A stretch of DNA of 60,326 nucleotides, the filler included, from Hausera hauseri (Eukaryota): assembly GCA_046269625.1 (NCBI GenBank). It is 12 parts of 12 records of this genome, joined end to end, with 100 filler letters (N's around TTAATTAATTAA, not from the genome) between each part and the next. Parts side by side here need not be neighbours in the genome. Positions count along the whole stretch, not along the records: positions 29,961 to 34,471 come from JBJURY010547563.1; 11 more parts are not named here. One strand, given 5' to 3'. Position 1 is the first letter of the stretch; every line of letters begins with the position of its first letter. This document shows positions 13,085 to 55,989 of the stretch, one piece after another. The position numbers and the translations under genes were made by a program. Under the pieces are notes generated by a model. That model was not told where the DNA came from. It was given only the letters and a program-made list of their open reading frames with translations, and did no database searches.

Positions 13085-13420
13085 TATTTCATTATATCCT
13101 TCACTGGGAAATCGTCGACGAACATTATGTTCAAGATCACATATAGACTGACACCATTGTAATGAGAATATAGAATGAGAATATATAATTTCAAAATACG
13201 AAAAATAAGCCCAAATACAATTATAAACTTTTATTCAATTTTTAAATTTACAAAATCTATTATTTCAATATTTCGTTAAATTCCATTGACAAGTCAATAA
13301 TCCAAAGACACAAAAATTAGGATAAAACATGTACAACATCTACAAAAGACACACGAAAACAGATTGAAGATTAAAAACACGGAACAAGCATAAAAAAATT
13401 TCATCACAATAATCACTGAA

Positions 13421-16490: not shown

Positions 16491-16594
16491 ATAGTAGTTA
16501 CTTAGTTTTACTTGGCCTTATCCTATATCCCACATTACTTGATCAAGAAAACAACACGATATTTCTATACAACATTTATTAACAATAACAATAT

Positions 16595-20067: not shown

Positions 20068-20970
20068 TTCTTGAAGTGATTGTAGAAATAATGAAAAAAT
20101 ATGTCCATATCACCATGTACTGCCTCGCTTATTGATTGGTTTTAATGCACTTTTGTTTTAATGCACCAACTAAATGCACGTTGGCGCCAAACTCCATTAG
20201 GTTTTCGTATATGGAGAATCGAATGGCGTCATTGGATTCTTCGAATAAAGCATTCTTGACCGAATATTCGAGTTCGAATAGCTAATTTTTCGACTTGAAA
20301 GCTCGAATTTAAATATATAACATCATATTCCCAATAGGCACGTATTTATTTCTATCTGCCTCCGCTAATTATTATATCGAATTTTGAGTGCTAGGAGCAA
20401 ATAAAACCTATGGAAATGTTAGGATCTCTTAATTACCAAAAAATCTGAATTAAAAAAGCCAAAAAATCGATTAGAATTCCAAATTGCCCTTTTCGAGTTT
20501 GAAACCTGTGACAGAAATAACCATTTCCCCAATTAACAAAAAATCCCAAAAAGTAAAAATCGAAAACGGGCTTGATATCCAAGAATCCAGATAAACAAAT
20601 TCAAAAACTGCATTAAAAAATACCAATCCAAACCGAAACAGTTCAAAAAGCAAGTTAAAAAGCCACAGAACAAAATTCAAAAAAGGCATCAAATGAAAAT
20701 CAAAAAGTACAAATTTCAAAAACACTGAAACAGAAATTTATCACCAAAATTCAGCGACTTTTCTGTACAGTGAACCGATGCAAACTTCGAGCATCGAACC
20801 GTACCCAGAATGACCGGTTTGGGCGTCCGATTCGTGGTCCAGAGAATCAGAGACAGTGTGATTGTGATCCGAAACATTGACGTGAATAACGTTATTTTGT
20901 GATCTTAAACTTTTCAGTTCAATCGTTACTGTGACTATGTGAATATTTTGTTATAAATAATAAATACTTG

Positions 20971-21141: not shown

Positions 21142-21639
21142 AGTCGAGCAATCACGATGCAAAATATTCAAGCTGCAATATCCAAGTCAATGGTCGAAAT
21201 CGCTCGTACCCAGGATGAAGAAGTTGGAGATGGAACAACTTCTGTCACAATATTAGCTGGTGAATTGTTGTCTCAAGCGGCACCGTGCTTGGAGAAAAAA
21301 ATCCGTCTAAACCAAAATAATAAATTTATATAGAGAAGCACTCAAAGACGTGTTGGAATTTATGAAACTAATTGCAGTGTGAAAATCAATCCGAATAATC
21401 GCGACGAATTATTGAAAGTTGTCAAAAGCTGTCTTGGTACAAAATTCGTCAACAAATGGTCCAACAGGGCCTGTATAATTGCACTAGATGCAGTTTCAAT
21501 TATCATGACAGATGAAAATGATCGCAAGGAAATTGACATAAAGCGTTATGCCAAAGTAGAAAAGATCCCTGGTGGAAGTATCGAAGATTCCACCGTTCTG
21601 TGTGGTGTAATGTTCAACAGGGACATTGTTCATCCGAAA
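21142..21639 (+). pseudogene. CCT3: T-complex protein 1 subunit gamma fragment
   Basis: [27 protein letters not shown] and [37 protein letters not shown]. Frameshifted, with an internal deletion after NIQAA, and truncated. Confidence 0.92.
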
Positions 21640-22930
21640 AATGTTAATAATGTAACAATCCCAGTGGACACGAGTCAACCGAATCCAAATAAAGTGGAAT
21701 TTGACAATTTATACTTAGACATGAATGGTATTATTCACCCATGTACTTGCCTGGAAAATAAACCTGCTCCAAAAATGAAGACGAAATGTTCTTTGAAAAT
21801 TTTGCCTATATCGATCTTATATCTTCAGTGATACGACCAAGACGATTAATTTACATGGCAGTTGACCGTGTTGCTCCCAGAACAAAAATGAACCAACAGA
21901 GATCCAGACGTTTTAGAGCTTGCAAGGAATCAAGAAAAAAACGATTGACCATTGACAGAATTCGAATGGAATTATTGCAAAAGGGTGCAAGATTACCCGA
22001 TCCAAATGACCCTTCGGAACATTTCGATAGCAACTGCAAGGCGAGATTGGCGATTTCCTTGCAGTATTATGCATATTTGGAATTGAATTCAGATCCAGGA
22101 TGGAAAAATATCCAAGTCATATCGAATGACGCTAACGTTCCTGGTGAAAGAGAACGTAAAATAATGGACTTTATTCGACGTTAGAGAGCGAATCCAACAC
22201 ACGATCCGAATACCAAACACTATTTATGCGATGCAGATGCCGATTTGATCATGTTAGGATCGTCAACGCATGAGTCATATTTCACGATAATTCGAGAAGA
22301 ATTCATACCCAATCAGCCGAAACCATGTGAAATCTGTGGTCAAACCAATCATCTAATGTCCGAGGGTTAAGGATTAGACAGTGTGGAATTTAATATCGGT
22401 ACAAGTTCTTCGTTACCAGAGACTGAGTTTATTTTTATTCATTTGAATATCCTACGAGAATATTTGCAACAAGAACTTGAAATGCCGAATTTACCATTTC
22501 CACACGATTTTGAACGAGCAATTGATGATTGAGTTTTTATATGTTTCTTTGTCGAAAATGACTTTTTGTTGCATTTACCCGGTTTGCAAAAATGAGAAAA
22601 GAAATTGATAGACTGGTGAAACTGTACAAATCAGCTGTGTATAACACGAGAGCATCAGTTTTGAAGGTCCTATAAGAAACTGAGGACAACAACGATACGG
22701 TTATTGATCCACAGTTGGAGCACGATGTTTGTGACCGCATATGGAGAGACAAGGTATCCAGTTTACCAGGCAACACTGTACATAATGCTAATGTTCTTTG
22801 TGAAAATGTCAAAGATATTAAAGTCATATCGTCATACTACAAAGATCCTTAATTTTATGCCGATTACATATTTAAAGCTCGTTTGTTACAAAATGTAATC
22901 GGACCGAATACAATCAAGACCGAACCTGAA
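21640..22930 (+). pseudogene. XRN2: 5'-3' exoribonuclease 2 fragment with internal deletions
   Basis: [83 protein letters not shown] and the C-terminal KDP*FYADYIFKA. Stops and frameshifts present. Confidence 0.93.
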
Positions 22931-23649: not shown

Positions 23650-25473
23650 CCACCGTCTCTTAGGTGGATCTGATCCAAATGCATCTTCTAAAGACCAACA
23701 AGATTGCTGATATCCCAACTATAAGTATACCGTTAAATTCACCTCTACCTCCTGCACCTACTGTAAATCTACCTTGCGTAGAATACTTCGTCGGCAAGCA
23801 ACACTCTAGTCGGGCGTGGCTGGATTTTTATGCGCTTGGTTGAATTAAAATAATATTGTCGATTCGTTCCTTAAAGCAAACAGTTTGCCTATACTCTTGC
23901 CTTTTAACATTAAGTCGCAACTTCCAAATTTATCGGAAATTTTCCAAAGTAGGGACTCATAAAACATTCTTTAACGCTATTTTAAAAATCACCGAACCAT
24001 CCATAGATAACATCATCCATAAATATTTTAACAACAACACAATAGGAACATTGAAACCCTCTGAATTTATACAAACCTCACCAACTCAATTGAGTACCCT
24101 TGGCGTTAATGAATTAAATAACGCCGATTTGCTACGTAGGTATTTTCTACAGTCTTTACCAAGAGACATACGCGCACTATTAACAATAGTAGAGGACAGA
24201 TCGTCACTACAAAAACTAGCACAACTGGCTGACAAAAGCCACGACGTCTTACATGCAAATACAGCCCCATTAATTGCCGCTACGTTTTATGCACCAACAA
24301 CTCAACAAGCTAGCGACATAGCTAATCTGAACTCATAGATAAATTCTTTACGTGTCGAAAACGCCAACATACATCAAGCGATTTCTGCACTCACGTCAAA
24401 AATCGAAGCTTTGACCATTCCTAGACGAAATCGTTTTGATGCGAACCATAGCCGCACCTCATCTCAAAATTCAAGGCATGCAAGGTCATCTACACGGTCA
24501 ATAGTGTGTTACTACCACACCAAATTTAAGGACAACTCCACTAAATGCTGTTTAGGTTGCAGATTGTATGCTCCCCATTTCACACGACCCGACATTGTTT
24601 GTATTTATCATAACAAATTTAATTCTAAAGCACATAATTGCGTTACAGGTTGCACTTTCGTTAACCGATCTAATTCACCACGACCTACTCTTTCTAACAA
24701 CATAAGTCCTGTGCCTCAAAAAAACTCATAAAGCCGCCAGATGTTTCGGCACATACTGGCACAGGCAAACGTCTTCAATCTAATAGCCGTACCTACGCTG
24801 TTTTCACATTAAAAGCCTCCTTAACATCCAAACCCAATTAACCAATCAACTTTCTCATCGACTCGGGGGTACTGTTTCGTTGTTACCACCATCTATCAAA
24901 ACACCATTCATATCACCATCTAACGCTAAATTATACACAGCTAACGGCCAAGTTTTACGCATTTTAGGCACGTCCAAAGTTTCATTCACTTTACCACCAT
25001 TCTGAGACATTTTCAATTGAAAATTCATCGTTGCCGACACACAATCTCCAATACTTGGGTCTGATTTCTTATCCTTCTACAACCTCCTTGTAGATTGCAG
25101 ACAATGTCGGATCATTAAAGCAGTTCAGCAAAGCCGACCCCTACAAATAACCAACCGATCATGAGGCCTATCTTAATTATAAAATCAATATTGAAGAAAC
25201 CATTAACCAATGTGAATAAAAACCTTACTGATAAAACCAGTATAAACAATCCTACTTTTCTGTTAAAGTCCTCTTTAGGCGGCCCGATTTCTACCATTTC
25301 TCAAACTAAGTTCAATCAAACATTTACTACGCCTAGCCAAGAAATGCAACAATATTTAGTCAAGTCTTGTTTTCATACAATAAAAAAGACCTAGCATTTC
25401 GACCGGTTAACACGATGTTTCATCATATCATTACAGAAAATCTTAGGCCCGTTAGGCAGAAACTCCGCCCACT
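23650..25473 (+). mobile_element. Ty3/Gypsy gag-protease-RT start (family A), degenerate
   Basis: FLQSLPRDIRALL...LQKLAQLADK, tandem CYYHTKF...C / CIYHNKF...C knuckles, FLIDSG protease motif, PILGSDFL, and HHIITE...VRQKLRPL. Confidence 0.9.
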
Positions 25474-25537
25474 AGTAGTTGTATAAGGAGGGTTATGGAC
25501 CGTAACGCTCCTTATACAACTACTAGTGGGCGGAGTT
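25461..25537. repeat. Near-perfect hairpin at the contig end with an AGTAGT...ACTACT core
   Basis: 25461-25490 is the exact reverse complement of 25508-25537, and the loop GGTTATGGACCGTAACG is itself quasi-palindromic. Confidence 0.9.
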
Positions 25538-28239: not shown

Positions 28240-29127
28240 CATTAACACTGTAGTAGATGACTCTACTGCCCTCGAAAAGTTCGTCTTATTGGCTGAAAAA
28301 AGCTTTAACATTCTGCAGTCCAATAACTCGCAGCCTGTAGCCGCAGCAACTACTCACACTGCCAGACAACACTTTATTTGCACAACAACTAAACATGATG
28401 CAGAAACAATTTGATACCCCACAACAAGCAATTTCTGCAATCACATCCCAACTCAGCGACTTATCTGTGCCCCGAGGAAGCGAAAATCGTATTTCTCGCA
28501 ATCGAAGTTTTTCCAGGCACTCTTCTCGTTCTAAATCTAGAGATGGTAGGATGACGTGCTTTTATCACAACAAATTCCGCAAAGATGAAAGGAAATGTGT
28601 TTTAGGCTGTCGATTCTACGATGCACGATATGCCGTAGACAATCGAATCTGCATCTATCACGCAAAGTACCAGTCCAAGGCTAGGTCATGCGTGCCAGGA
28701 TGTAAATATTATAAAAGGAATTCTAGTTCTCCATTTTCTTCGCCTCTGCGTACTCACCATTCCTCCTCTTCCTACCAACAAGTCTCAAAAAACCAGTAAT
28801 GCCACCATATTCCACGGCACATTCTGGTACAGGCAATATTGCTGACACTACTGGCCGTTTCAACACGGCCTCTGCAGTCTTTCTGTTGGAAGCTAATCGG
28901 TTACTTAAAGCACATCACACATAGATTTCCTTATTGATTCAGGAGCTGCATTTTCATTTCTTCCATTGTCTTTCGCTCCTACATCCAACACAGTTTTCTC
29001 TACTTTACTCTTCACTGCCTGTGGTCAACCTTTGAACATTGTATGTACCACAAAGCTGTCTTTCTCATTCTACAACCTACCAGGAAAATTTTCCTGGAAT
29101 TTTCACAGCCAACATCAGATCGCCCAT
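28240..29127 (+). mobile_element. Ty3/Gypsy gag-protease fragment (family A)
   Basis: CFYHNKF...CVLGC / CIYHAKY...CVPGC knuckles and FLIDSGA protease motif; ends at ANIRSPI. Confidence 0.88.
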
Positions 29128-29960: not shown

Positions 29961-31432
29961 GCGGGTGGTGGGATGTTGTCTACAGATGTTTACACTGGAA
30001 TATCTTTGATAATTTTTCGAAGAATTCACTAATAAAATATGGTGTGCGGTCAGTCAATAACTGCTTCGGTGTGCCTAGTACGGCCACAACATAATAAAAG
30101 AATGTTTCGGCTACCGTATGACTAGTCATATTTTTCAAAGGTATTAGAACAACATATCTTGAATAGTAACCAACAAGTGACAAAATGTATTTATATCCTG
30201 ATTCCGATGTTGGAAACGGTCAAGAAATATCCATCGAACAAACTTCCATAGGTTGTCGTGCTTCGAGAAGACTTCCTAAAATGGCTTTGCACGGAATCCT
30301 CTATCCTTTATGGTAGCACACATTTTGAAAAAACGTACCCATCCCTCAATGTTTGTTCATTTGAGGCCAATAACATTTTGTGGCAATGCGTTTCAATGTC
30401 TTGTTTAACGACGGATGACCCGCTAAATGTGAGTCATGTTCTTGCAGCATAACTGCTTTGATTGTTGAATTGGGTACAATAATTAGCTTTCTTTCACCAA
30501 CTTTAAGTTTTAGTATTCCATTTTCAATGTCTAAATGTTCCTTACGTCCGTAAAATTTCTGAATATGACTTGATACTTGATCAACCGTTTGTCCATTTGT
30601 TAAGTTTGACTTGGACAATAAATGGATCTTGATTTTGTAAAGCTTCGATATTTCGAACCTGAATTTGCTTTTGTTTCTGTAACATGTCATTAATAATTTT
30701 CTCATTTAATTGTTTCTTCTGTCTTGTGGTTTATGAACGGCAGCAACTATATTTTCATAAGGTAATCTAGAAATTGCATCTGCGTCTGCATTGTCCTTTC
30801 CTGGTCGATATCGATATTCGATGTCATAATTCAAAAGCTCTAGCTTCCATCTTCGGAGTCGGCTTGATACATGTCTATTGTCTGAGCGCAAAGAAAGTAG
30901 TGCTTTATGATCCGTGAATATTATGACTTTGACCATAGACATAATATTCATAATGTCGTAGTCCGTCACGTATTGATAATAATTCTAATTCCGTGGTAGA
31001 ATATTTCTTTTCGGCGTTATTTAGACTTCGTCCTCCATATGCAATTACATGCTCAGTTGTCTCTTCTGGACACTGTTGAGCCAAAATGTAACTAATAGCT
31101 TTAATGCTGGCGTTGGTTTTCAGAATAAACAAGAGTGAAAAATCCGGATATCGTAATGTGGGTGCTGATGCTAGACGTCTTTTTATTTCATCAAATGCTT
31201 CTTGATTTTCTTCCGTCCATTCCCACTTCTGATCCTTTCGAAACAATTTATACTGGGGTTGGTTAATTTCTACAAAATTCTCAATAAACGTAGGATAAAA
31301 TCCTCCCACTCCTAACCAGGCTCTCATCTCATGTACACTGGTTGATGGAGGATATTCCAAGATTATGGATATTAAATCTGAACTGGTATATATGCCTTGG
31401 TTTGAAACAACAAATCCAAGATATTTGACTTC
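29961..31432 (-). mobile_element. Ty3/Gypsy pol pseudogene (RT thumb, RNase H, integrase), family B-related
   Basis: EVKYLGFVVS, LRYPDFSLLFILKTNAS, IAYGGRSLNNAEKKYSTTELE, TDHKAL, EHDSHLAGHP...YWPQM and PKQLLTDR. Confidence 0.92.
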
Positions 31433-31890
31433 TGTTGGTATTGTATATGGTGCCAACAATATTCTAGTAAGTGGTTCGACGTAACGGATATCATTATTAT
31501 ATTTGATAGGTATTTCTGAATCACAGTGTATCTTTGATTAAGGATAATTCCAATCTTTTACACTTGTATGTGAAAAGTACTTCTAGGACTCTGCTCTGGA
31601 TTCCTTCGCCGAACGAGAGTTATCATTGTCATTTCTGGATTTGACGCACAGATGGCTAATCGGTTTCTCAACGTTTCAAAGTTTGCCTAGCAGAAATTCT
31701 GAATTGTTTCGGAATACACTTCTATTGTTTTGTGGGTCAAATAAAATAAGACATTTCTATTTGCGATGTAATCGGCAATGTTCACCAATTGAGCCCTGTC
31801 GGTTAATGAATTGTCTGTTTGTACAATTTCTTTTTCCGATTTTAAGAGTTTGTATTGGGCAAAAGCCCTGTATAGGCCGCACAATACAAG
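31433..31890 (-). pseudogene. Chuvirus-like glycoprotein, central fragment
   Basis: VNIADYIANRNVLFY...SNPEM...GEGIQSRVLEVLFTYKCKRLEL...HCDSEIPIKYNNDIRYVEPLTRILL aligns by eye with the glycoprotein at 34727-35100. Confidence 0.8.
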
Positions 31891-32779
31891 TTCTAAAATC
31901 CAGTCGTAAAACGACTGGTGAAAACTTGGGGAAACAACAACTCCAGATTAGGTTTGTTGTAATAAATTTAGGTTGATGTAGGTGATCTAGACGTCGTGTG
32001 TAGGTGGAGTTGGACTCCACACCATATAAGAAGTTGGCAAAGATGTCCTCGACGCTGTGGTATTTGGTTGCGGTTGTTTTGTCTGTTTCAAGACAGCATT
32101 TCAATAAATCTTCATTTCGGTTGTCTTTGTCATCATCACGGCTGCTGCTGCCGCTGCTTGTTGGTTTCGTTCTTGAATCGCGTGAGTCATCAGCAGAGAA
32201 GCTGTATGAATATGAAAAGAATATTAAAGAAATTTATCAGGAAATTATCGGCGTTCATGTCTGCATCCATTCGGTTGAATTCGCATTTGATATCTGATAG
32301 TGACTATGGGAATTATCGTTGACAATAAAACAGGTTTGTCCACCATGTGAAAATGATGAAGTGTTAATGACGGTATGACCGACGGAAATCGTGTGCTGAT
32401 GAGCTGTCGTCAGTTGTTATGGGACCTTGTGGTGTAGTCGAGTCGATGGACAAGTTCCATATTAAATTGATGAATGACGCGTTGGTCGTAATTCCTGCAA
32501 TCTTCATCAGTGTCGGTTGATCGGCGAATAAATCGGACAATTATGGCAGATCGCCCATTCGATTTGTGGTTGGTAATGATATCGCAGTCGCAGCTGCGAT
32601 TGCTGATGACGACGACAGCAATGCGAATTTGTTGATGTTTGTCGCTTTCCCTTTTTTTAAAAGTTAAACTGTTCTTTTGGACTGTAGATTTAAATAACCG
32701 GGTTTAAATCCACAGATTTTTGCTAATGATAATGTTCTTAGGCGAATTCATGATTTTTTAGTATTTGAATTTGTTTTGA

Positions 32780-33520
32780 TATTTGATTTTGTAAAGAAAA
32801 GCTTTACAACGATATAAAATAATTTTCATAGTTTGTACTAAATACTTGTTCACATTTTGTAATCAAGTCTTGTTGTATAAACTTAACACCTTGGATATTT
32901 TTAGATATTATAATTTTGGTTTTTACTTCATCAATTACTTCACTATTTGTATTTTCAACATTTGTTTCATAATGTCGTGCATGACGTTTTCCCGTCGTTG
33001 CGTTAGATTCGCCTTTCCGGATTTGTACTAATGCAATCATAACTTTTAGGGGTTGTGCAGTATCGTAGACGTTCTTGTGTGACAATATCCTATTCTAATT
33101 TACAGAAGGGAACATCCATTATCGTATTCGTGTTTGTTTCAAAGATGAAGGTATTTTCTTTGATTTCAACATCATACTGATCGTGTACAACCGATTTTGA
33201 AATAACTCCTTTACCTGTATCGAAATTGCCTCCTTTGCCATTTCCTTTTCATCTTTATGCAACAATTCATTTTTCTTGTTGAGTTACTTGATCTCTGCAG
33301 TTAATAAGATGTCACCTCACTTCAATTGTTGGGTTTCACCTGCGTCTCGACAATATGTGAGATTGACCGACACGTATCTAGGCATTGTTGTTGGTTTGAT
33401 AGCGGAAACATGATGTAGATGACCGCAGTAGGTAATAGTACGGGATACTCGTAGTGAACACTAATCCTTTTATATGATGTGTGGATTTGTCATAATAAAT
33501 ATACGAATTTTGTGTCGTAA
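32780..33520 (-). pseudogene. Chuvirus-like glycoprotein, N-terminal ectodomain fragment
   Basis: SRTITYCGHLHHVSAI (cf. chuviral RTIYYCGMHSHVSAV), GGNFDTGKGVISKSVVHDQYDVEI...FCKLE, and GVKFIQQDLITKCEQVFSTNYE (cf. GLKFIKKEMMTRCDKVMFATNYE near 34614). Confidence 0.8.
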
Positions 33521-34319
33521 TTCCTAATTTCTTCGGAAGTGCGTCCGGGCGAGATTGTAAATTCATTAGAGTAATAACTTCCTTCATAAACTTTGTCACA
33601 ATTGTATGTTAGTATGGTTCCTGATTTCTTAAAATTTGAGAATAATGCCAATATGAATAGGATGAGTTGTAAGAAGAATCCATTAGTTTTAGTTCCGACA
33701 CTTCAGCATTTCTTCCTGAATGTTTCATCATTTTATCCATAACAATGGGAACAGCTTCTTGTGAGGAATTCTCTGTAATTTCGAAAATAGCCTTTTCTAA
33801 TGTTGTTTGTTCTGCTTCTGGATGATTTTCGTTTTCATTTCGTAAGAATAAGACATTCCATTTGCCGTATTGTGATATGATCGATTTGCTAGCCTGGATT
33901 ATTTTTCCAGTTGTAATTTTAAGTCAGTTTCGTTGTTTCGGATATAAGTAGAATTATTACTTTCTCAAGGTTTCTGCGCGATGGCGCCTCTAAAATGAGT
34001 TGGGTAATGTCTTCAAAAGTAAAATTTTCCCATTCCAAATTTTTAGTGGTTTTTCACAAATTTGAATTGCTCTTTAACTTGTTTCTTCCATTTTGGAGAA
34101 TGGAGGATTATCGGATCTTTGCTTGTATCGACATAACATAGCTCGCTAGCTAATTTTGCATTTTTGCATTCCTTGTACAGTTTTGGCGTTTCGAATTCAA
34201 TTAGTTGATCCGCAGTTTTTAGCATTTGTTATTGTTTTATTTCGTTTACATCGCTCATTTAGGTAAAGTTTTCTTTACGATTGGTTATACCACTTCTTGG
34301 CCATCAGTGTCAGTGTTTG

Positions 34320-34471
34320 GCTTGTTCAGTGTTTGGTAGTCTAACCTATAAGTCTTGATTATCGTATTTGATAAATGGTTTGTTTAATGCCGTACAGTTT
34401 CGAATTCCTGTTGGTATTGTATGTGGTGCCAAAAATATTCTGGTTATTGGCTGAACATAACGAATTTCATC
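34320..34471 (-). pseudogene. Additional chuvirus-like glycoprotein fragment
   Basis: DEIRYVQPITRIFLAPHTIPTGIRNCTALNKPFI...VRLPN; a paralog of 31433-31500 that continues further into the glycoprotein. Confidence 0.7.
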
Positions 34472-34571: not shown

Positions 34572-35744
34572 ACGGAACACCCGACACCGACTATATTTAT
34601 TTCCGACCCGCACGGACTAAAATTTATTAAGAAAGAGATGATGACACGCTGTGATAAAGTAATGTTCGCCACAAACTACGAAGCGTTCTTTGTGCCGAAA
34701 CAGAAATAAACGCGAGAACTTACAAATTGAAAACGCAAGACGTTCGGATTGAGGACTACCTGAAAAATAGGGACGATTATTTCTACTGTAAAGGACAAGT
34801 CGGAATAACAGAATTATATCATAAAATGATAATGAATGATAATAAGAACTATAATGGCTCTTATATACGCAAATCCAGAATTAGCTTCTCCAATAATTTC
34901 CATGAGAGAAGGAATTTTCGGTCGAGTTACGGGCGAAGTATTACTAACCTATGAATGTGAAAAAAGAGAACTACCTATCAGCGTAGAAGAAAAACGTTGT
35001 ATCCAAGAACTTCCTGTTATTTACCAGTATACTCCAAGATTAGCTACACCATTGACGAGAGTGTTGTTGGATAGCGCGACACAACTGATCATTCTTAAAG
35101 ATTGTAAATCAGGCTTAGGAGAACCAATGTTTCGACGTAGCGAAACAGACTGGGTTAGTTTACCTAATGGAGATATCACTGCTGCTCCTAACAAGCTAAC
35201 AGGGACGAATCTTGCGAAGGGTATTACAGACGATAAATTTCAAGACATCTCGTCAAAAGGTATATACAGACCAAAAGAAATTGAAGCCTTCAGACAATTC
35301 CCCGCCTTTCCACGACAACGAACACATGAGCTAAATCGAGCTATGGCGTCTGTAGTAGACGATACACGATATCAAGCTAAATGGGAATCATTACTTGGCG
35401 TAAACCACTATCAAAGAGTGACAACAGAAATACTCTATAAAATTTGGGGAAGATTTTTGATTTTTGGACAAGCCGCATCAGGATTTTTAGCGATATACTT
35501 TCTGATACAAATGATTAAGTCGGTTATCCAAGCCGTGATAAACGGATATGAAATATTTACACTAACCGGATTTTTATGTAAAATTCTGACTGCAATCATA
35601 ACGCCTTTTGGAAAATTCTTAAAAGCATATGAGGAAAGTAGATGGAAATCGGACGTAGAACGTCATGTCGGTTACTATAATCGTAAACGAAGAGGGAGAC
35701 CGTTATTCCTACAAAAGCGGAAGTATACAAAACCTATTATATGA
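34572..35744 (+). CDS. Chuvirus (Jingchuvirales)-like envelope glycoprotein, C-terminal half
   Basis: GRVTGEVLLTYEC...CIQELPV...ATPLTRVL, SSKGIY...IEAFRQFPAFPRQR and IWGRFLIFGQAASGFLAIYFLIQMIKSVIQAVINGYEI mirror chuviral G (VAGEVIHIVKC...CYxQLPV...TPRTHIL, TSGIY...LRDHIMFPAE, WxKFLxFGxxSAG...IxHGYAL). Confidence 0.85.
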
Positions 35745-38700
35745 AGAAATAATTCAGATGATGACGAGCCTAAGGGAGGAGAAGCGCTTGTAGGAATAAA
35801 TAGACATAAGATGTACTCCGTCATGAAAGCGCCATTGCCCATGTTACCTCCTACCGCTCCATTCTACGAAGATTGCGACAAACGATCCATGAGCTCATAT
35901 CAAACGGAAATCTATAAAAGAACAATTAATGTCGAAGATCCTTATGAAGGAACGAAACGTTACGGAATTCTACGGAAAATGTGCTACCGACAATCCGCAG
36001 ATGATCCCAAAGTGTTTTATTCACCGAGAGAATCTAAAAATATCGAAACTAGATCTACGGTTTGGGACAAACCCAGATTTAAAACCTTCCAACATACTGA
36101 ACTACATACCAACAATCGAGAGCCGCTAATCAGTACTCACGAAATGGAAGAACTGCATGTAAAAAACAATGAATTATATTCCGACGAAGAATTAAGACAG
36201 TTATCGGGAAACATAGTATCCGCCCCAGAAGTACGAATAAACGGACACAAAATATCAGTAACTAAATGTATGAAAATAGCATCGAATTGTTTCGGAACAG
36301 TGATCGAAGGAAGACCGTTCGCCAAAATCACTATTGAGGATTGGGAAGTTTATGCGTCAAGTTTATACATCAAAAATAATTCAATACCTCAAACGCTAAG
36401 AGGACAGTTATATCCGCCGTCTACGAAAGATCCGGGTAGTATAGGAGCTTTTGGCCAAATGTCAAAACCAATGTTTAAATGGAACCCAGAAGTTCATTTA
36501 GTTTGGCAAACATTTCGACACAAATTTGCGATCATGGAACAATTAACTGACGACGTTGTTCTAGGATGCAATTTATTGAAAAGGTTACCAAATATAGCAG
36601 TCGACCTACAAACAGGAAAATTAATAGAAATCAGGCTCAATAAAGGTGTGAAAAACTCTAATAATAGAAAATTTGGGGAAGTGTGGATACCAGTAGACGA
36701 GAATATTCCACCAAGAACGGAAATAATAATTTATGCACAAATTCAGCAAGATGACGATCATCCAGTATACTTCGAACCAAAGGAAACGTTAAATCCAAAT
36801 ATAACGCTCAGTAATGTACTTACGAGAGTACATTCTGGTCGTGTGCCGATCAGAATAGCGAATAATGCACCAACTCCTATCAAATTCCATGCTTATACTA
36901 CTCTAGGAGATACGTATAGAGTATCGTCAATAACCATTGAAGAAAAGCCTTATAAGTATGCCGAATTTCCGCCTCATGTTGAAACTAAGTTCTGCCCGGA
37001 ATTCTACTATCGATTTTATGAATTATTATGCCACTATAAATCAATTATTGCTAAGGATAAAAATGATAGCGGTAGAGCAAAAGCGTTAAAACTGACTGTT
37101 CCGCTCAACAAAAAGCATGATTCAAATGAAGAAATAGATTTGGAGGATCAGAAGATTCCGAAACAATACCCTCCACCACATTCGCTAAGACTTGAGTAAA
37201 CAAAGGAAGTCGAACGAATGCTTAAGGCCGATATAATTATGCTCAGTTACAGATCCTGGTACTCGCCTATCCTTATGGATAAAAAGAAAGGCACCATGAA
37301 GCACCGATTTTGTATCGATTATAGAGCTCTAAATAATCTTATGATGAAAGATTCTTTTTTAATGCCATTAGTGAAAGAGGCCTTAGACAGACTCTCAGGA
37401 GCAAAATAATTTACCACTCTGGAACTACAATCCGAATATTGGCAAGTGGAAATAGAGGACGAAGACCGCTATAAAACAGCGTTTAAAACACACGATGGCG
37501 TTTATGAATTTAACGTCATGCCGTTCGGTATTACTATCGGATTAGCCATATTTACAAGAATGATGAACAAAATGTTAATGGGACTGGATCATGCCTTTGC
37601 GTATTTAGATGACGTGATAATAGCATCGAGAACAGAAGAAGAACACTTAAAGGATATTGAACACGCACACTGATGAGATTGGAACAAGCCGGATTGAAGT
37701 TAAATCCGAAGAAATGCAAATGGGCTCAAAATGCAATATCCTACCTGGGTCATATAGTTAGAGAAGAAGGATCGAAACCAGATAAATCGTTATTGAACAA
37801 AATATCAGATTGCATGGAACCACAAAATCAGAATGAGTTAAGACACTGGTTAGGTCTCTGCGGATATTATGCAACATATGTGCCGGATAATTCAAAGATT
37901 AATTCACCTGTATATCGTCTGCTTAAAAAAGGGATTAAATGGAAATGGACAGACGTGGAACAGAAAGCTTTTGATGAGAGGAAGAAGATATTAACAAGCG
38001 AAACCGTTTTGCGATATCCAGATTTTAGCTTACCCTTTATAATCAAGACAGACGCCAGTAAAGAAGGCATTGGTTATGAATTAGCACAGAAAAGAATATG
38101 AAGAATTAGAACACCCGATTGCTTATGGAGGACGTTCCTTAAAAAGGCCGAGAAAAATTATTCTGTTACCGAATTAAAAACTCTAGCCGTAAAAGAAGCA
38201 CTACGCCATTTCAACGTTTACGTATACGGACAGAAAATTATAATTGTTACCAATCACAATGCTGTTACGACCTTAAGGGCCGAGCAAATAATCCGACATG
38301 CAGGCTTAATAAATGGATCGAAGAAATCTCCAGATATAACATTGAATTTCAGTATATGCCAGAGAACAAACATGTAGACGCAGACGCCCTATCGAGATTA
38401 AAGATTAAAACAAGCGCAATCATTACAATGAAGAAAAGTCAACTTGAGGAAGTAATAGACCGCCAAAGAGCGCTAACAATGGATAAGGCCATTAAAATTT
38501 CAACTGAACAAAGAAAGGATAAGGTCGTCCAGCAGATTATAGAATTCGCCAAGAAGGATGTCGTACCAAGAGGACGAGAGTTAAAGAAGCATTTAAACAG
38601 ACTCGGACATAAATATTGCGTCTTGAATAACAAGAGTAAAGAAGATATTTTATATTACGAGCGAAAAGGAAGGAAATTGATAGATATCCCAAAGAGTTTA

Positions 38701-39780
38701 CGAACCGAAGTGCTGATGTCAGAACATGATTCATACTTAGCCGAACACATGTCCTGGAAGACATTAGAAAGAATAATAAACAAGTACTTTTGGCATAGTA
38801 TCTATATTGATGTGAAAAATTGGGTAAATGCCTGTGAAGTGTGTGCAACTAAGCAGAAAAAGACGAAAAAATACATGGCCGAGTTAAAACGAATTGATGT
38901 ATCCGATAGGCCCATTTAGGCCATGTCGATGGATATCGTAGGATCTCTTCCTACGACTCATAGGAACAATAAGTATATGTTAACGTGCGTCGATCGCCTA
39001 ACTCATTTTGTCAAAGTGGTAGCATTGGTTGATCAGAAGGCGGAAACTTTAGCAGAAGCAGTAGTAAGAAGAATCATTTGTCGATACGGACCACCTGACC
39101 AAATATTAACGGATAGAGGTAGAAACCTTACCAGTGAACTTTTCGAGAAGATTACCAAGATATTTGAAATCGAACGATTAACCACTACCGCATATCATCC
39201 TGAGTGTAACGGGATGGTAGAAGGCATGAATGCTACCATCATACGTATATTATCAACAGTTGTGGCAAAGGGCCAAAAGGATTGGGATGGATTTTTAGAA
39301 GGAACTCAATTTGCGATTAATACTACACCACATTTAGTAACAGGATTTACACCATTTTTCATGATGTATAGTTGTGAAGCTGTGTTACCTGCAGACTTAG
39401 TAATGACGCCATACACAGTCAGTCTCGAAGATTTGGAGCAGAACTTTGCAGAAGTATTGCAGACACGATTACAAAAATGTTGGGAAATTGCCAAGGAGCT
39501 ATTTTAAAAATATCAAGAACAGTTTAAAAAGCAATATGATAAGAAAGCGAAACCGCACGATCTAGAACAAGGAAACTGGGTTTATGTACATTATTCGGTA
39601 GCCAAAAAAGGCACCTCACTAAAATTGACTTGTACGGGTAGAAAACCGTATGAAGTCACCAGAGTCACGCCAACCACAGTGTATATTAGCAAGAATGGAA
39701 AAGAAGAAGTTGTGTCAATACAGAGAGTTGTCAAGACAGAAATGCGACCCAGCAAACGTTATAATTTACGCCAACGTTGG
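35745..39780 (+). pseudogene. Linker plus Pol (protease, RT, RNase H, integrase) of family B copy 1
   Basis: VVLGCNLL (protease end), RFCIDYRALN, KTAF...MPFG, AYLDDVII, IKTDAS, HVDADALSR, H..H...CEVC, MDIVGSLP, ILTDRG and HPECNGMVE. Confidence 0.95.
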
Positions 39781-41211
39781 GTAAAAACATCCTCAATAGT
39801 TACTAGACCAATATCATATGTTCAGATAGTTTTAGCATTATCACTAATTGCCTCCTACATCCCAAGAATACAAGCGCAATGGTGGCATGATGAATCCACA
39901 TTAGGAGATATATACGGAATTCGGAAGAGTGGATCGAAATCGGAAGCAGATAAAACGGAGAAGAAACCAACAGCCGAACAAATTCAAAGACAAGAAGATA
40001 CTAAATTGTTACAATCGATGATAATTCACTATTATTCGCCAAACGCAGTATGATCGGATTTAAGGTTTGGAGGCCACACCTTGATTTTGGAAAGTTTCAA
40101 ATTGTCTTATTTGACCTAACCACAAAAGCAATGAAAAATTGTAATTTCGAACCTGGAGAGAATATCCAGTGCTGCGACAGATTTTGGACGCACGTATAAC
40201 CTCACCTATCGTCTCTACTTGCCAGACTCATCCGAAGTTTATCTTGAAACAAAGCCACATTCACAATTAATTATCCCTGCATGGAACAGACATCATGGAG
40301 TAAAACTTAATGAAATATTACGATCTACTGACCCAGATATAAGAATATTAAACGAAAATATCCAGATAATCTCTGTGAATAAGGACAAACAATGCATTCA
40401 AGTAGACGCTAGAACAGGATTAACTTTTAGTCAGGAAATTAGTATTACGTTTGAAGCAACAGATGGACTGACCCCAAAAATAGAATATTGTTCTATTCGA
40501 GCAGGCGTACAAAGTCCATGAAGTAAAATACCCGTAAACCAAGAATTCAAGATAAGATTTGACTTATATGAAGTACGGCCTAATAAATCAAGTGTACAAC
40601 TTCGAACTTACTATCCAGAAAATAAAATTTGGAAAATTTTAGTAGAGACAACCACCAGAAGACCGGCAACTCAAGTTAATACCGTTACGACAACCGTTAC
40701 GTCGGCCAGTGTGCCGAAAAGAGAATTAGGAAGCATTCCTATTAGATATTCGGTATATCGGTCTAAGATTGTGTTCTTTGTGGAAGGAAAACAAAATTAC
40801 AATATACATAAATTGTCGGACAACGTATAATAATCAAGCTGTGACATTATTTAAAAATACTTATCAGAGTGCAATTTATTAAAACCACAAACCAAGTATG
40901 TAGTACAAGTATACGCAGAGAATAAGCAAAATCAGACTGTTACATTGCAAACTTTAGATGAGATTCGCGCAGAATCCCATGCATACGAGGATATAGATGG
41001 ACAGATCACAACTCCGGTCACCACACAAGCCCCAATGGGATTAACTACGCTACCAATCGTATCCATCTCCATATTGTCAACATTTGTTCTCATATTAATC
41101 GCGATTTTTCGGCTAGTTACCAAAAACTGCTATTCTAAGCGTTCTGAAAACTCAGAGTGGGAATTAAGGAAACTGGAAACCTCTGTTGATCCGTATGATA
41201 AAATAACCTGA
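39781..41211 (+). pseudogene. Type-I membrane protein fused in frame after integrase (signal peptide, FN3-like domain, Thr-rich stalk, TM, short tail)
   Basis: After RYNLR: YVQIVLALSLIASYIPRIQA (signal-like), TTTRRPATQVNTVTTTVTS, LKPQTKYVVQVYAEN (FN3-like), IVSISILSTFVLILIAIFRLV (TM) and tail YDKI. ORFs 38923, 39625, 40219 and 40945 share one frame. Confidence 0.7.
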
Positions 41212-41540
41212 CAACTACAGAGCGGGTTATTCTATCATCTAATAAAGAATTGATTTAATTTTAAAACTATCCTTTGTCGTAAGATTAATCCTTACTGTTT
41301 ATTTTTCAGACTGATGAGTAAAGAAAGAAATACGGAAGCAAACACCGGACGACCTAGGATCGACGTATCACAATCTACCCAAGAGTCAGAACAATGTAGT
41401 ATCGATAAATCGCCGAAACGCCGATTTAGTATCGACGAATTCTTGCAGAATTATGCTACCATCTTCCTCCCAAATTCTAAATCGATATATAGAGAAATAC
41501 ATAACGTACTACATGAGAAAACCTTCGTGAAGTATGATCG

Positions 41541-44225: not shown

Positions 44226-44666
44226 CTAAATATTCAGACAGCCCCTACAGACAGTATTCTCCCGCCACGGCACTTGTCCCTGTGGGGTTTGGAAAAACTG
44301 AGTAAAGTTTTGCCTGACACGCTGTGCGGCTCGTGAGGCACGGGCTGCCGACAGTCTGCCCGTGTCCAGCAGGTTGTTGTCTCCAGCCACTTCGGTCCTC
44401 CAGACACCTTGCTGGAACTCGCCTGTTGCGGTAGGTGAGTCGGCAAAGTTTGGAGGGATATAACTTGCAGCAGGCGCATTAGCAGCATCTGTTGTTGTTA
44501 GGTAGTTGTGCAGACACACGCACGCCTTAACAACATCGACAACCTTGTCTGGGACAAACTCCATTGGACGTCCAAGGATCCTCCACCTTGACGCCAGGAT
44601 TCCAAACGCATTTTCGATCACACGACGTGCTCTGGAGTGCCGGTAGTTGTAAATCTGCTCTGCCAA
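44226..44666 (-). mobile_element. PIF/Harbinger transposase C-terminal exon
   Basis: YNYRHSRARRVIENAFGILASRWRIL...KACVCLHNYL and G.VPW. Confidence 0.9.
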
Positions 44667-46173: not shown

Positions 46174-49100
46174 TACAAGAACTTCCAGTAATATATCAGG
46201 ACGTACTGAGGTTAGTAACACCAATTACCAGAGTGTTGTTGACAAATGCCACTTAACCGACAATTTTTAGATACTGTAAAACCAGCTTAGGAGAGCCAAT
46301 GTTCAGACGTAGCGAAACCGACTGGGTAAGTCTACCTAACGGTGGTATTATCGCACCACCTACCAAACTGACAGGAACAAACTTAATAAAATGAATAACC
46401 GATGACAAATTTTAGGATACAGCTGCAAAAGATATTTACCGACCAAAAGAAGTAGAGGCGTTTATACAATTTCGCGCTTCTCCCCGCCAACGTACTCATG
46501 AATTAAACAGAGCGATGCATACAATATTAGAGGACTCGCGCTATCAGGCGAAATGGGAGTCACTACTTGGAGTTGGCTATTACAAGAAGGTAACTACAGA
46601 AATATTATACAAAATATGGGGAAGATTTCTGATATTCGGACAAGCCGCGTCAGTATTTCTAGCAATATACTTCTTAATTTAACTAGTAAAAGCTATAATT
46701 CAAGCAATCATAAATGGATACGAGATATTTACCTTAACAGGATTTTCGTGCAAAATTTTAACGGCTATTATTACACCTTTCGGTAAATTCTTAAAGGCTT
46801 GTGAAGAAAGTAAATGGAAAACAGATGTAGAGCGACTTGTGGGCTACCACAATCGAAAACGTAAAACACACGTATTTGATTATAGACAGAAATTCATAGT
46901 CAGTAAGACACAAAAAAATAATTCGGATGATGACGAGCATAAGAGAGGAGACATCATCACCAGGCCGAGTAAACACAAAAAGTACTCTGTTATGAAATTA
47001 CCATTACCAGTAATGCCACCAATGGCACCTATAGATGAAGATTGCGAGAAACAATCTATGAGCTCGTGTCAGACAGACGTCTATCGCAAGCCATTTAATA
47101 TAGAGGATCCCTACGAAGGAACAAAACGCTATGTGATATTTAGCAAGATCCACGAAACAGAGAGGACGTCTGCCCCACACCATCGATCGGCAATAGACAA
47201 CCACGGTATAATTTACTCACATAGAATACCTAAGCCAAACGAAACGCAATCGATATTTACTCGAAGCTGCAAAGCATGAAATCTCCGAAAAACACATGTT
47301 CAGCCTCCAGTCAGAAACCCAAGAGTAGAAAACGCGAATGGAACGAATAACGAACTATATCCAATTGGAGAGTTAAGACAGTTTGTCGATCAGCCAGTTG
47401 GAACCACTGAAGTTACCATCAACGGCTATAAAGTGTCTACGATACGACAACCCAAGGTAGAGCCAAGCTATTACGGTACAGTAATCGAATGAAGGCACTT
47501 CGCAAAAATTCAATTGGGGGATTGGGAGGTTTATGCACTAATAGATACATGATCTGAAATATCGCTGATAAAATATGATTCAATACCACAATTCTTACGG
47601 AAACAATTATATTCACCTCCCACGACAGACCCAGGAAGCATTGGAGCTTTCGGACAGTCGTCGAAAAGCAAATTCCGTTGGAAACCAGAAATTCACATAA
47701 TGGGACAATCTTTTCGTCATGAATTCTCGGTAATGGAGCAACTAACGGATGACGTAGTGTTACTGTGTGACTTATTGAGACAACTGCCCAATATAGCAAT
47801 CGATTTCAATGCAATCAAGTTGATAGAACTTGGCCCAATAAACGGAGTTAAAACCACTAAAGATAGGAAATTTGGAGAAGTGTAGATTCCAGTGGATGAA
47901 ACCCTATCACCCAAAACAGAAATCCTAATATATGCTCAGATACGTCAGGATGACGATCAGCCAATATATTTTGAACCAAAGGAATCGCTCGATTCAAACC
48001 TCGTACTCAGCAATGTTTTGACAAGAGTATCAACGGGTCGTGTACCAATCAGGATAGTCAATAACGCACCAATTCCGATCAATCTGTACGCTAATACCAC
48101 TTTGGAACACATGTGGAGAGTATCATCAATCACTATTGAGTAGAAACCATATAACGGTGCCGAATTTCCACCCCACGTCGAGACTAAGTTTTCACCAGAA
48201 TCATATTGTCAATTTTACGAATTACTTTGTCATTATAGTTCAATTATTGCGAGAGATAAAGAAGACATTGGCCGAGCCAAAACCTTAAGGCTTACGATTC
48301 CGCTTAAGAAAAATCCCGGATGTAACGACGAAATAGACTTAGAAGATCAAAAGATTCCAAAATAGTACCCTCCTCCACACTCGTTAAGACCAGAGATAAC
48401 CAAAGAGGTTGAACGAATGTTAAAGGCAGACATAATTAGACCATGCTACAAATCTTGGTATTCACCGATACTCATGGTCAAGAAAATAGGTACTATTAAG
48501 CACCGATTTTGTATCGACTATTGAGCACTAAATACACTTATTATGAAGGACTCTTTTCCTTTATCATCAGTAAAGGAAGCTCTGGACAGACTTTGGGAAG
48601 CTAAATGGTTTACCACTCTTGGCTTGCAATCAGGATATTGGCAAGTGGAGATAGAAGAAGAAGATTGTTACAAAACGGCATTTAAGAGACACGACGGCAT
48701 ATATGAATTTAATGTTATGCCTTTCGGAATCACCAATGGACCAGCTATTATCACCCGCATGATGAATAAGATGCTAATGGGACTGGCACATGCATTCGCC
48801 TATTAAGATGACGTCATGATTGCCTCGAAAACGAAAGACGAACATTTAAAAGACATTGAAGGTACACTCATGAGGCTGGAACATGCTGGACTAAAACTGA
48901 ATCCCAAGAAGTGCAAATTGGCTTAAAATGCGGTATCGTACCTTGGACATATAGTTGGAGAAGGAAAATCGAAGCCAGACAAGTCATTACTAAATAAGAT
49001 ATCGGACTGCATGGAACCTCAGAACCAAAAGAAATTAAGACATTGGTTAGGTTTGTGTGGGTATTATGCTACTTACATACCGGACAACGCGAAGATACAC

Positions 49101-51200
49101 GCACCTTTGTACCGCTTATTAAAAAAGGAAATCAAATGGAAGTGGACCGATATCGAACCAAAGGTTTTCGATGAAATAAAGTACATTTTAACTAATGAAC
49201 CGGTTTTAAGATATCCTGACTTCAACCTGCCGTTCATAATCAAAACGGATGCCAGCATGGAAGGCATCGGATATGAACTGGCTCAGAATCGAGAAGACGA
49301 GGAGTTAGAACACCCGATCGCATATGAAAGGCGTTCTCTAAAGAAGGCTGAAAAGAACTATTCCGTAACAAAGCTGGAAACATTGGCAGTGAAAGAAGCA
49401 CTGCGACACTTTAACGTGTATGTCTATGGACAAAAGACTGTAATCGTTACCGATCATAAGGCAGTCACGATCTTAAAAGGTAAAGCGAATAATCCAACGT
49501 GTAGACTAAATATATGGATAGAAAAATTTTCACGTTACAATATTGAATTTCAATACAAACCCGGAAGTAAACATGTCGATGCCGACGCATTATCGAGACT
49601 TAAAACCAAAACAAGCGCAGTTACTGTAATGAGTAAAGCACACCTCGAAGATTTAGTAGAAAGACAACGGAATTCGTGCTGGATAAAGCATTAAAGATTG
49701 CTGTCGAACAGAGAAAAGACAGGGTTATACAACAGATTATCGAGTTCGTTGATACCAACGTAACACCCAAGGGTCATATACGGAAACACCTACGACGATA
49801 TGGTCACAAATACTGCGTCGCTGGAGATTGGAACCATGAAAAAGTGTTATACTACGAACGAAAAGGACGAAAATTGGTAGTCATACCAAAAGGAGTGCGC
49901 ACAGAAGTGCTTTTAGCCGAACATGATTCATACTTAGCTAGACACATGTCGTGGAAAAAGACATTAGAAAGGATATTAAATAAATATTATCGGCCGAGTA
50001 TTTACATTGATGTGAGAAATAAGCGCAACCAAACAAAGGAAAGTGAAAAACATATCGACGTGCCCGATAGACCAATGCAAGCAATGTCTATGGATATTGT
50101 AGGGCCATTACCTACAACTCATAAGAAAAAAAATATAGTTTGACCTGTGTAGATCGACTGACTCATTTCATCGAGCTTGTAGAGTTACTAGACCAAAAAG
50201 CCGAAACCTTGGCAGAAGCCGTAGTTCGCAAAATCATTTGCAGATACAAGCCACCCGAACAAATCTCGACAGACAGAGGAAGAAACTTCACGAGCGAATT
50301 GTTCGACAAAATTACCAAAATTTTTGAGATTGTACGGCTAACTACTACGGCTTATCATCCCCAATGTAGTGGAATGGTTGAGCCAATGAACGCAACAGTT
50401 ATACGAATCTTATCGACAGTAGTCGCACAAGACCAGAAAGATTGGGATGAGTTCTTAGAAGGTACACAGTTTGCTATTAATACTACGCCACATCCTGCAA
50501 CAGTACTTACTCCGTTTTTTATGATGCATGGCAGAGAAGCTGTATTACCTACAGATATAGGACTGATTCCATACACAACAAGAACGGAAGATTTGGAACA
50601 AAATTTTGTCGAAGTATTACAATCAAGATTGCACAAGTGTGGGGAGATAGCCAAGGAAGTATCTAAAGAATACCAGGAACAATTCAAGAAGCAATACCAT
50701 AAGAAAGCTAAACCTCACGATTTAGAACCCGCAAATTGGGTTTATGTACACTATCCAGTAGCAAAGAAAGGAATATCTCTTAATTTTACCAGGACAGGCA
50801 CAGGACCTTATGAAGTTACCAAGATTACGCCGACCACAGTCTATATAAATAAAAATGGCAAGGAAGAGGTCATATCAATTCAGAGATTAGTTAAAACGGA
50901 AATAAGACCGGATAAATGCTATAATTTGCGTTCGAATAAAGTTAATAAGGAAAGGAAAACATCGTCAATCGTAACCAAACCGTTACCGTATGTCCAAATA
51001 ATTCTTGCCCTATCGTTAATCGCTTCATGTGTACCCAAGGTGACATCAATAACTAGAGCCGAAAAACTACGATACGCGATGAAACGCAGGGATATCCAGA
51101 ACATGCAATCACTTAGAGTACATGATATGGATTGGAGCAAACCATGTGCATGGTTTGAAGCAAGCGAACCTATTCAGAGCCACGTAAAATTTCAAATAAT
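46174..51200 (+). mobile_element. Envelope-bearing Ty3/Gypsy retroelement (family B), copy 2
   Basis: Glycoprotein C-terminus (QELPVIYQ...IWGRFLIFGQAAS, 46174-46830) continues in frame via NNSDDDE into the protease ALIDT*SEISLI (about 47535-47570), then RT, RH, IN, RSNK and the signal-like YVQIILALSLIASCVPKVTS. Confidence 0.92.
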
Positions 51201-55985: not shown

Positions 55986-55989
55986 TTCA

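Follow-up and report, generated by a model that had tools for sequence, protein, structure and literature searches.

Envelope genes located ahead of pol are an already published layout among Ty3/Gypsy retrotransposons (PMC6431247, PMC13524379). Errantiviruses with a GAG-ENV-POL arrangement and an HSV/gB-type ENV occur in nematodes, bryozoans, and flatworms (Chary and Hayashi, eLife 2026, PMC13524379). That source cites Sacco et al. 2022 for the nematode elements and already terms the arrangement long-standing and non-monophyletic. In planarians, Burro/GYPSM1 carries an in-frame env between gag and pol within one polyprotein (Arkhipova and Yushenova 2019, PMC6431247 section 7). This giant Gypsy element has an ORF1 of about 4,900 aa with accessory domains, including a dUTPase-like region between protease and RT, and its Env matches mononegaviral fusion glycoproteins and follows directly on a Bcl-2-like stretch (PMC6431247). 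Chuvirus glycoproteins also occur in other settings. These include the BEL/Pao element Anakin (Dezordi et al. 2020, as cited in PMC10084718, PMC12440569, and PMC13524379) and endogenous Jingchuvirales glycoprotein elements, which are PF24664 relics adjoining fragmentary Gypsy sequence (PMC10084718). The locus described here is a further example of env before pol and not a new system.

The window, that is, the whole stretch of 60,326 nucleotides that was analysed, comprises 12 contigs with linkers N44-TTAATTAATTAA-N44 between them. The element studied corresponds exactly to contig 7 (29961-34471), where all peptides quoted in an earlier note on this DNA were found on the minus strand. Contig 7 very likely preserves the relic of a dead gag-env-pol Ty3/Gypsy LTR retrotransposon in which a chuvirus-like class III fusion glycoprotein of gB type (G) serves as env and shares one frame with pol. 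Two further copies lie on separate contigs, and all three contigs (4.5-7 kb) end inside the element. The features are as follows.

29961..30492, minus strand: integrase zinc-binding and core domains (Pfam Integrase_H2C2 E 2.7e-10, rve E 6.2e-9)
30763..31432, minus strand: Ty3/Gypsy RT thumb/connection and RNase H (Pfam RT_RNaseH_2 E 1.9e-28)
31424..31440, minus strand: in-frame deletion join of G to RT thumb, between 31433 and 31432
31433..31840, minus strand: central ectodomain of G (profile columns about 299-435), ending at the deletion join
31841..32809, no strand assigned: insertion of 969 bp inside G, with a 4-bp flanking duplication and a hairpin at each end
32810..33690, minus strand: signal-peptide-like hydrophobic stretch and N-terminal ectodomain of G (profile columns 4-298 of 642)
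33700..34321, minus strand: A-rich stretch of 622 bp ahead of the G signal peptide (AT skew 0.30)
34322..34471, minus strand: short second central-G piece of a sibling element (profile columns about 415-450), cut by the contig end
34575..39780, plus strand: copy 1, with the C-terminal two-thirds of G including the putative membrane anchor, a protease-like region, RT, RNase H, and integrase
39790..41202, plus strand: decayed post-integrase frame of copy 1 only: hydrophobic stretch (N-terminal), FN3-like motif, and transmembrane-like stretch (C-terminal), from hydropathy and motif
46176..50900, plus strand: copy 2, with the C-terminal part of G, protease, RT, and RNase H in one frame, then integrase

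The minus strand of contig 7 encodes a decayed chuvirus-like, herpes-gB-type glycoprotein that extends from a signal-peptide-like stretch at about 33690 to roughly two-thirds of its length at 31433. Stops plus about six frame breaks disrupt its N-terminal part, and one stop and two frame breaks its central part. Both pieces had been proposed previously, at about 33520-32780 and 31890-31433. Their presence stands and their bounds change: the N-terminal piece starts near 33690-33666 and ends at 32810, and the central piece starts at 31840 rather than 31890. Evidence for G comes from tblastn with relatives and from a profile HMM, whose E values were 1.7e-11 to 2.8e-4 for five pieces and 0.02 and 0.15 for two further ones. 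A frameshift-aware alignment gave scores of 311 for the N-terminal piece (shuffle maximum 44, 20 shuffles), 220 for the central one (47, 30 shuffles), and 56 for the sibling piece (42, 40 shuffles). PF24664 matched two of the six scanned G pieces at E 7.5e-4 (33302-33460) and 0.012, neither reaching the curated cut-off, and whole-frame Pfam scans of contig 7 returned RNase H and integrase only. Cysteine is retained at nine of the ten conserved Cys columns covered by the pieces. The signal-like stretch, like the anchor of copies 1 and 2 that is deleted in contig 7, was assigned by eye and from its place in the profile. Contig 7 thus supplies the N-terminal ectodomain, as had been claimed, of a relative at about 40% identity and not of copies 1 and 2 themselves.

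Homology of the env to gB-type class III fusogens follows from PF24664, the family profile, the fold (modelled on copy 1), and the cysteines. Herpes gB accounted for 30 of the 32 PDB matches of the family profile (best E 0.0018). For the structure model of copy-1 G (pLDDT 80), matches to chuvirus-like G had E 3e-11 to 1e-9, and the match to herpes gB had E 0.0075; none of its PDB fold matches reached E 0.001, and a single-sequence PDB search with copy-1 G gave no match.

The G profile columns are contiguous on either side of the 969-bp insertion. Its hairpins have z scores of -3.3 and -3.2, and the combination of a flank match with an 8-bp hairpin at the first base occurs at one of 94,972 window positions, the insertion site itself. 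The ends may resemble those of Helentron/Helitron2 elements. No match to the insertion was found in Pfam (six frames), Rfam, Atlas (one 158-aa ORF), a set of 174 proteins, or elsewhere in the window. A solo LTR was rejected, given that the flanks of its TG...CA positions fail to match. An insertion is also preferred over overlapping, separate G copies around 31841-32809 because the DNA overlap score was equalled by 16 of 300 shuffles.

At the 5' end of contig 7, the previously suspected paralog near 34410 is a 63-nt repeat (34408-34470) that is 83% identical to 31432-31494, with a local score of 85, where 300 shuffles reached at most 41. The piece containing it matched P0010 by blastx (E 2e-7). 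The 12 differences between the repeats split 4/0/8 over codon positions 1/2/3, and this bias disfavours a tandem duplication after inactivation (P about 0.02 and 0.008, from only 12 differences). The 5' G piece derives from a sibling element of the same family, and contig 7 is a mosaic. Between this piece and the signal peptide, the A-rich stretch has a skew whose sign agrees with the element's coding strand. It showed no match to G, Pfam, gag, the 174 proteins, or a Bcl-2-like profile, and is probably a gag-to-G spacer. A reading of 34320-33700 as the C-terminal half of G, plausible by eye, was abandoned at a score of 32 against a shuffle mean of 30. Besides the 63-nt repeat, no long direct repeats were detected; an LTR, primer site, and gag were not seen in contig 7, and no tRNA genes were found.

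Such rearrangements raise the question of whether the joins are assembly or amplification chimeras rather than genomic events, which we regard as highly improbable. The insertion displays its 4-bp flanking duplication, end hairpins, and contiguous G columns, and the two central-G pieces are not one locus assembled twice because they differ by 17% with codon-position bias. The contigs are nevertheless short, and others in the window contain odd junctions between intronless gene pieces, for example, an ORF whose end is a BRO1 piece (946-5058) and a CCT3 piece with unrelated sequence after it (21334-21831). The CCT3 piece, at most 72% identical to its counterparts in diverse animals, places the host among animals. 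An artefact would, in any case, leave the layout unaffected, since copies 1 and 2 and their relatives show it.

G is joined in frame to the RT thumb, as the earlier note held, with the frame open over 30905-31537. The internal deletion that it had proposed is supported by copies 1 and 2, where the equivalent points lie 2666 and 2682 nt apart. About 2.67 kb is therefore absent: the RT polymerase core, the protease, and the remainder of G together with its putative membrane anchor. Likeness to the sibling G piece extends about 8 nt beyond the join, which suggests microhomology. Downstream, the RT thumb/RNase H segment has one frame break near 30929, and the integrase, cut by the contig end, has four stops in 177 codons. 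The pol order fits Ty3/Gypsy (Metaviridae), with RT thumb-RNase H-integrase in contig 7 and PR-RT-RH-IN in copy 2, and the nearest pol matches of contig 7 are Gypsy-type.

The open frame could be read as a trace of selection on a G-RT thumb-RNase H fusion that was retained either in a domesticated gene or in an element of non-autonomous type. The 222 RT thumb/RNase H codons contain no stops, against nine in the other 573 (estimated Poisson P about 0.03, uncorrected for a picked segment). This explanation is scarcely credible, however, as an in-frame join is expected by chance in one of three cases and the RNase H has a frame break. Moreover, the upstream G carries five stops, about eight frame breaks, and the insertion, and a signal peptide without an anchor would route RNase H into the ER lumen. 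As a dead relic, the copy cannot transpose, fuse membranes, or make a fusogen or RT.

Contig 7 gives no independent proof of gene order because its G meets pol only across the deletion. The proposal that G lies 5' of pol holds there as an order of pieces, and the layout is shown instead by copies 1 and 2 together with database polyproteins, in which G precedes protease-RT-RNase H-integrase in one frame. PF24664 (E 4.3e-31) and RVT_1 (E 1.4e-20) share a Pfam frame in copy 1, where G to RT is one frame, as do PF24664, RVT_1, and RT_RNaseH in copy 2 (RVP E 0.007). Both copies are cut before the point where gag would precede G. With copy-1 G as the query, a word-based homolog search found none among 2309 candidates, and a full HMMER search recovered 328 relatives. 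Among the 150 relatives listed, blastp places pol domains within the G-bearing ORF in 13, after G in 11 and before it in two. Pfam adds P0003 as a relative with G and pol, and gag features lie upstream in P0008 and P0011. The 11 of 13 relatives with pol after G bear out the suggestion of an old, diversified layout, and the published view agrees.

Contig 7 is the third and more distant member of this lineage. Its pol is 41.8-43.5% identical to those of copies 1 and 2, against 81.5% between the two, and its G is 37% (35 columns) and 41% (105 columns) identical to that of copy 1, compared with 78% for the copy 1/copy 2 pair; the far greater divergence noted earlier is thus substantiated. The three window copies form a clade in a careful pol tree (100/99), which was built without 12 of the 34 rows (11 that were short or near-duplicates, and P0073), and also in a quick tree of all 34 (100). 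In a G tree of 24 of the 150 relatives, picked by rank and context, contig 7 is sister to copy 1 with moderate, unstarred support (91/75). Both fall within a clade of G-before-pol glycoproteins (100/99) that is set apart from seven standard-context G rows. P0051 and P0135 pair in both the pol and G trees. Two results count against the lineage reading: the eight G-before-pol rows of the pol tree group weakly (52/84), and the quick pol tree places the window clade among rows without G. Attraction of contig 7 to copies 1 and 2 is also possible because its branch is long (1.2-1.45) and it has the host composition in common with them. Contig 7 G and pol are nonetheless shown to belong to the G-before-pol lineage of copies 1 and 2.

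The order could alternatively be accidental if a deletion had fused the G of some element, such as the 3' env of a gag-pol-env copy, to a neighbouring unrelated Gypsy pol. G and pol each independently group with copies 1 and 2, and G lies in the pol-downstream clade, away from IN-then-G and BEL-type rows. The stretch ahead of G is, in addition, unlike integrase or post-integrase sequence. We therefore consider an accidental order highly improbable, even though contig 7 is demonstrably mosaic through its sibling G piece and G reaches pol only via a deletion. Identity of pol is not diagnostic on its own, since the RT-thumb/RNase H piece is as similar to other Gypsy elements as to copies 1 and 2 (39-46% identity to 23 of 24 other Gypsy pol matches without a listed G domain). 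The earlier concern that G fragments and pol derive from different elements is partly justified by the 5' G piece, whose sibling source belongs to the same family.

In the active ancestor, a single polyprotein may have been organized as (gag-)spacer-signal-G-anchor-pol. The internal signal would direct G to the ER lumen, and the anchor would bring pol back to the cytosol, with host signal peptidase and the element's protease freeing the parts. G on budding particles could then have mediated membrane fusion and cell-to-cell spread. In contig 7, a microhomology-guided deletion or template switching presumably took out the G anchor, protease, and RT core. A second rearrangement would have placed the sibling's G piece upstream, and a small element may have inserted into G, with neutral decay afterwards.

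With the GAG-ENV-POL errantiviruses, this family shares a Ty3/Gypsy pol, a gB-type chuvirus-like env before pol, several divergent elements in one genome, and broadly congruent G and pol trees. Those elements are intact and mostly LTR-bounded, whereas contig 7 is decayed, deleted, and mosaic. Compared by description with Burro, G relatives also carry a Bcl-2-like stretch before G (Pfam E 0.00096 in P0007, 0.2 in P0001). Unlike in Burro, no such domain was detected before contig 7 G, where a three-sequence profile gave at best 0.2 bits (shuffle median -0.6, 95th percentile 3.0) and decay could hide it. The region between protease and RT, deleted in contig 7, is similar in copy 1 to its counterpart in P0002, P0004, and P0005 and has no Pfam or PDB dUTPase match. 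Anakin, as described in the papers citing it, likewise reflects capture of this glycoprotein family by an LTR retrotransposon; unlike that BEL/Pao element, contig 7 has a Ty3/Gypsy pol with only Gypsy-type domain matches. Its G also falls outside the clade with the DUF5641-bearing BEL-type row P0054. In contrast to the Jingchuvirales elements, the G of copies 1 and 2 and of relatives lies within the reading frame of a retrotransposon rather than as a free viral insertion.

Contig 7 ends ahead of the post-integrase region, where copy 1 has Pfam fn3 matches below cut-off (E 0.04-0.29) that are absent from P0002 and P0004. A motif C-x2-L-x-P-x-T-x-Y with a C-terminal hydrophobic stretch occurs after the integrase in copy 1, P0002, and P0004. 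Chosen after the sequences were seen, the motif appears in only two of 294 proteins (P0002 and P0004) and is missing from P0135, the other relative with sequence past the integrase. Five of six pairwise tail alignments did not exceed shuffles, and the remaining one was out of register. An FN3-like protein of this kind was not found in the literature searched, and "fibronectin" is absent from the main text of PMC13524379. These features might point to a two-glycoprotein entry system, in which a fusogen that this lineage had moved before pol would be paired with a second, type-I FN3-like membrane protein, placed after the integrase where env usually lies, as an attachment or host-modulating partner, an idea we consider unlikely.

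The locus adds one host genome in which gag-env-pol, gB-type Gypsy elements form at least two deeply diverged families, which fits the published picture of an old and diverse layout. Its significance would grow if the host belonged to a phylum other than Nematoda, Bryozoa, and Platyhelminthes, or if the membrane protein after the integrase, should it be real, were a conserved second envelope component.

On the minus strand of contig 7 (29961-34471), fragments of a decayed glycoprotein (G) stand before a Ty3/Gypsy pol, an observation of the earlier note that proves real. Contig 7 is one of 12 in the window, which are strung together by linkers identical to one another. The parts are arranged as follows.

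34471-34322, minus: short central-G piece
34321-33700, minus: A-rich stretch
about 33690-32810, minus: signal-like stretch and N-terminal ectodomain of G (profile columns 4-298 of 642)
32809-31841: 969-bp insertion
31840-31433, minus: central G, reaching profile column ~435
31432-30763, minus: RT thumb and RNase H
30492-29961, minus: integrase, truncated at the contig end

In a frameshift-aware alignment, the N-terminal G piece scores 311, where shuffled sequences reach 44 at most. The A-rich stretch shows no match to G, Pfam, 174 fetched proteins or a Bcl-2-like profile. G carries 5 stops over 396 codons, along with some 8 frame breaks, the integrase 4 stops in 177 codons, and the RT thumb/RNase H region one frame break and 0 stops in 222 codons. 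Without anchor, protease and RT core, this copy is dead.

The direct join of G to RT had been tentatively ascribed to an internal deletion, and comparison with the related elements on contigs 8 (copy 1) and 10 (copy 2) bears this out. The two points joined in contig 7 stand 2666 nt apart in copy 1 and 2682 nt apart in copy 2; what follows in G, its anchor included, has therefore been lost together with the protease and the RT core. Likeness to the 34471-34322 piece extends a few bases beyond the join, which may reflect microhomology there. Over 63 nt, that 5' piece is 83% identical to central G (31840-31433); the 12 mismatches are spread as 4, 0 and 8 over codon positions 1, 2 and 3. Small as the sample is (n=12), this spread points to divergence under selection, and hence to a sibling element; contig 7 is thus a mosaic to which two or more related copies contributed. 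The concern that G and pol derive from different elements holds to that extent, but the contributors appear to be related copies of one family.

The G profile columns run on unbroken from one side of the 969-bp insertion to the other, and the same four bases lie at both flanks, as a 4-bp duplication. A perfect 8-bp hairpin begins at its first base (z -3.3), and a second, longer, imperfect hairpin closes at its last (z -3.2; equalled in folding by 32 of 2000 random 60-mers). Flank match and first hairpin occur together at 1 of 94,972 positions tested, the insertion site alone; with criteria drawn from that site, the figure shows rarity and is not a formal test. No match was found in Rfam, Pfam, Atlas (one ORF) or the 174 fetched proteins. 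The insertion contains Ala- and Ser-rich low-complexity frames.

Membership of contig 7 in the family of copies 1 and 2, as proposed earlier, is sound. In a careful pol tree, built on 22 rows after 12 of the 34 were left out, the three window copies form one clade at 100/99; in a G tree (26 rows, 195 columns), contig 7 pairs with copy 1 at 91/75, within a 100/99 clade of G-before-pol glycoproteins. As for congruence, G and pol both group with window copies, but the eight G-before-pol rows, all on one side of the careful pol tree, are held together weakly (52/84). A quick pol tree of all 34 rows recovers the window clade at 100, placed among rows without G. The family claim is carried by trees and not by identities, because branches are long and the pol of contig 7 is, in raw identity, no closer to copies 1 and 2 than to other Gypsy elements.

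Copies 1 and 2 lie at the following positions.

34572-41540, contig 8: copy 1
46174-51200, contig 10: copy 2

They share 70-71% DNA identity, and in both Pfam places a Monjiviricetes (chuvirus-like) fusion glycoprotein upstream of RT in the same reading frame. A full HMMER search returned 328 relatives of copy-1 G. The top-ranked ones are polyproteins with G, then protease, and in many cases RT, RNase H and integrase as well. Gag features stand upstream of G in two of the best-matching (Pfam). Among the 150 relatives listed, 13 have pol domains in the same ORF by blastp (after G in 11, before G in 2). The G of this family is gB-type: 30 of 32 PDB matches of a profile built on 96 sequences are herpes gB, the best at E 0.0018. 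The predicted model of copy-1 G matches chuvirus-like glycoproteins strongly; its match to herpes gB is weak, and no PDB fold match falls under E 0.001. A Bcl-2-like stretch directly precedes G in the relatives P0007 (Pfam E 0.00096), P0001 (Pfam E 0.2) and P0016 (by eye). Ubiquitin-like-looking stretches were seen, by eye only, in P0016 and P0008, and another relative, P0076, has immunoglobulin domains ahead of a PF24664 (chuvirus-like) glycoprotein in one ORF. Bcl-2-like and ubiquitin-like stretches are described for Burro, the planarian giant Gypsy with env between gag and pol.

The host belongs to the animals; within 21334-21831 (plus), a piece of CCT3 reaches a best identity of 72%, to molluscs, insects and flatworms. 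At 946-5058 (plus), an open frame without introns, about 1350 codons long, appears to fuse two genes of the host: its last third is BRO1/ALIX-like (Pfam E 5.8e-25), and its first two-thirds, which we take to resemble spatacsin, gave no match. The CCT3 piece continues in frame into an unrelated-looking stretch, possibly akin to the N-terminus of XRN exonucleases, and is apparently another gene-fragment chimera. Further Gypsy-like gag and pol relics lie at 10989-11806, 23799-24613, 28341-28799 and 57749-59116; 10989-11806 and 24613-23799 are 66% identical, and 57749-59116 reads by eye as protease-RT. A 226-codon frame at 12554-13234 (minus, contig 3), with no Pfam match, might be an envelope-like or accessory gene. 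Decayed frames at 16491-20970 (minus) may represent Polinton/adintovirus-type DNA polymerase B regions; 18988-20019 has no significant Pfam match. By eye, we take 44226-44708 (minus) for a Harbinger-like transposase C-terminus and 55959-56805 (minus) for a broken GPCR-like gene. A near-perfect 77-bp palindrome (25461-25537) sits at a contig end.

We observe the frame and domain order, and infer the topology, processing and infectivity of the ancestor. It most likely made a single polyprotein, in which an internal signal would send G into the ER and the anchor would bring pol back to the cytosol; proteolysis would free the parts, and G would act as a fusogen on budding particles. PMC13524379 states that the infectivity of such envs remains unclear.

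The contig 7 element is filed with the GAG-ENV-POL Gypsy elements bearing a gB-type env. Its way of working is that of Burro, but it is kept apart from Burro, since no Bcl-2-like domain was found in contig 7 and the comparison rests on domains and gene order. The G-before-pol layout is already published: PMC13524379 describes GAG-ENV-POL elements, their env of the HSV/gB type, from Nematoda, Bryozoa and Platyhelminthes (its table has 10 rows for bryozoans and 9 for flatworms, and names 'Nematoda' 72 times) and considers this gene order long-standing and non-monophyletic. A single lead reaches further, namely the membrane protein encoded after the integrase in copy 1 and two relatives.

39790-41202, plus: post-integrase reading frame of copy 1, with hydrophobic start, FN3-like motif and C-terminal transmembrane-like stretch
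~50950-51030, plus: start of such a frame at a second window site

A frame of like kind lies at the C-termini of the relatives P0002 and P0004. Judged from a short motif and hydropathy, its product may serve the lineage as a second envelope protein.
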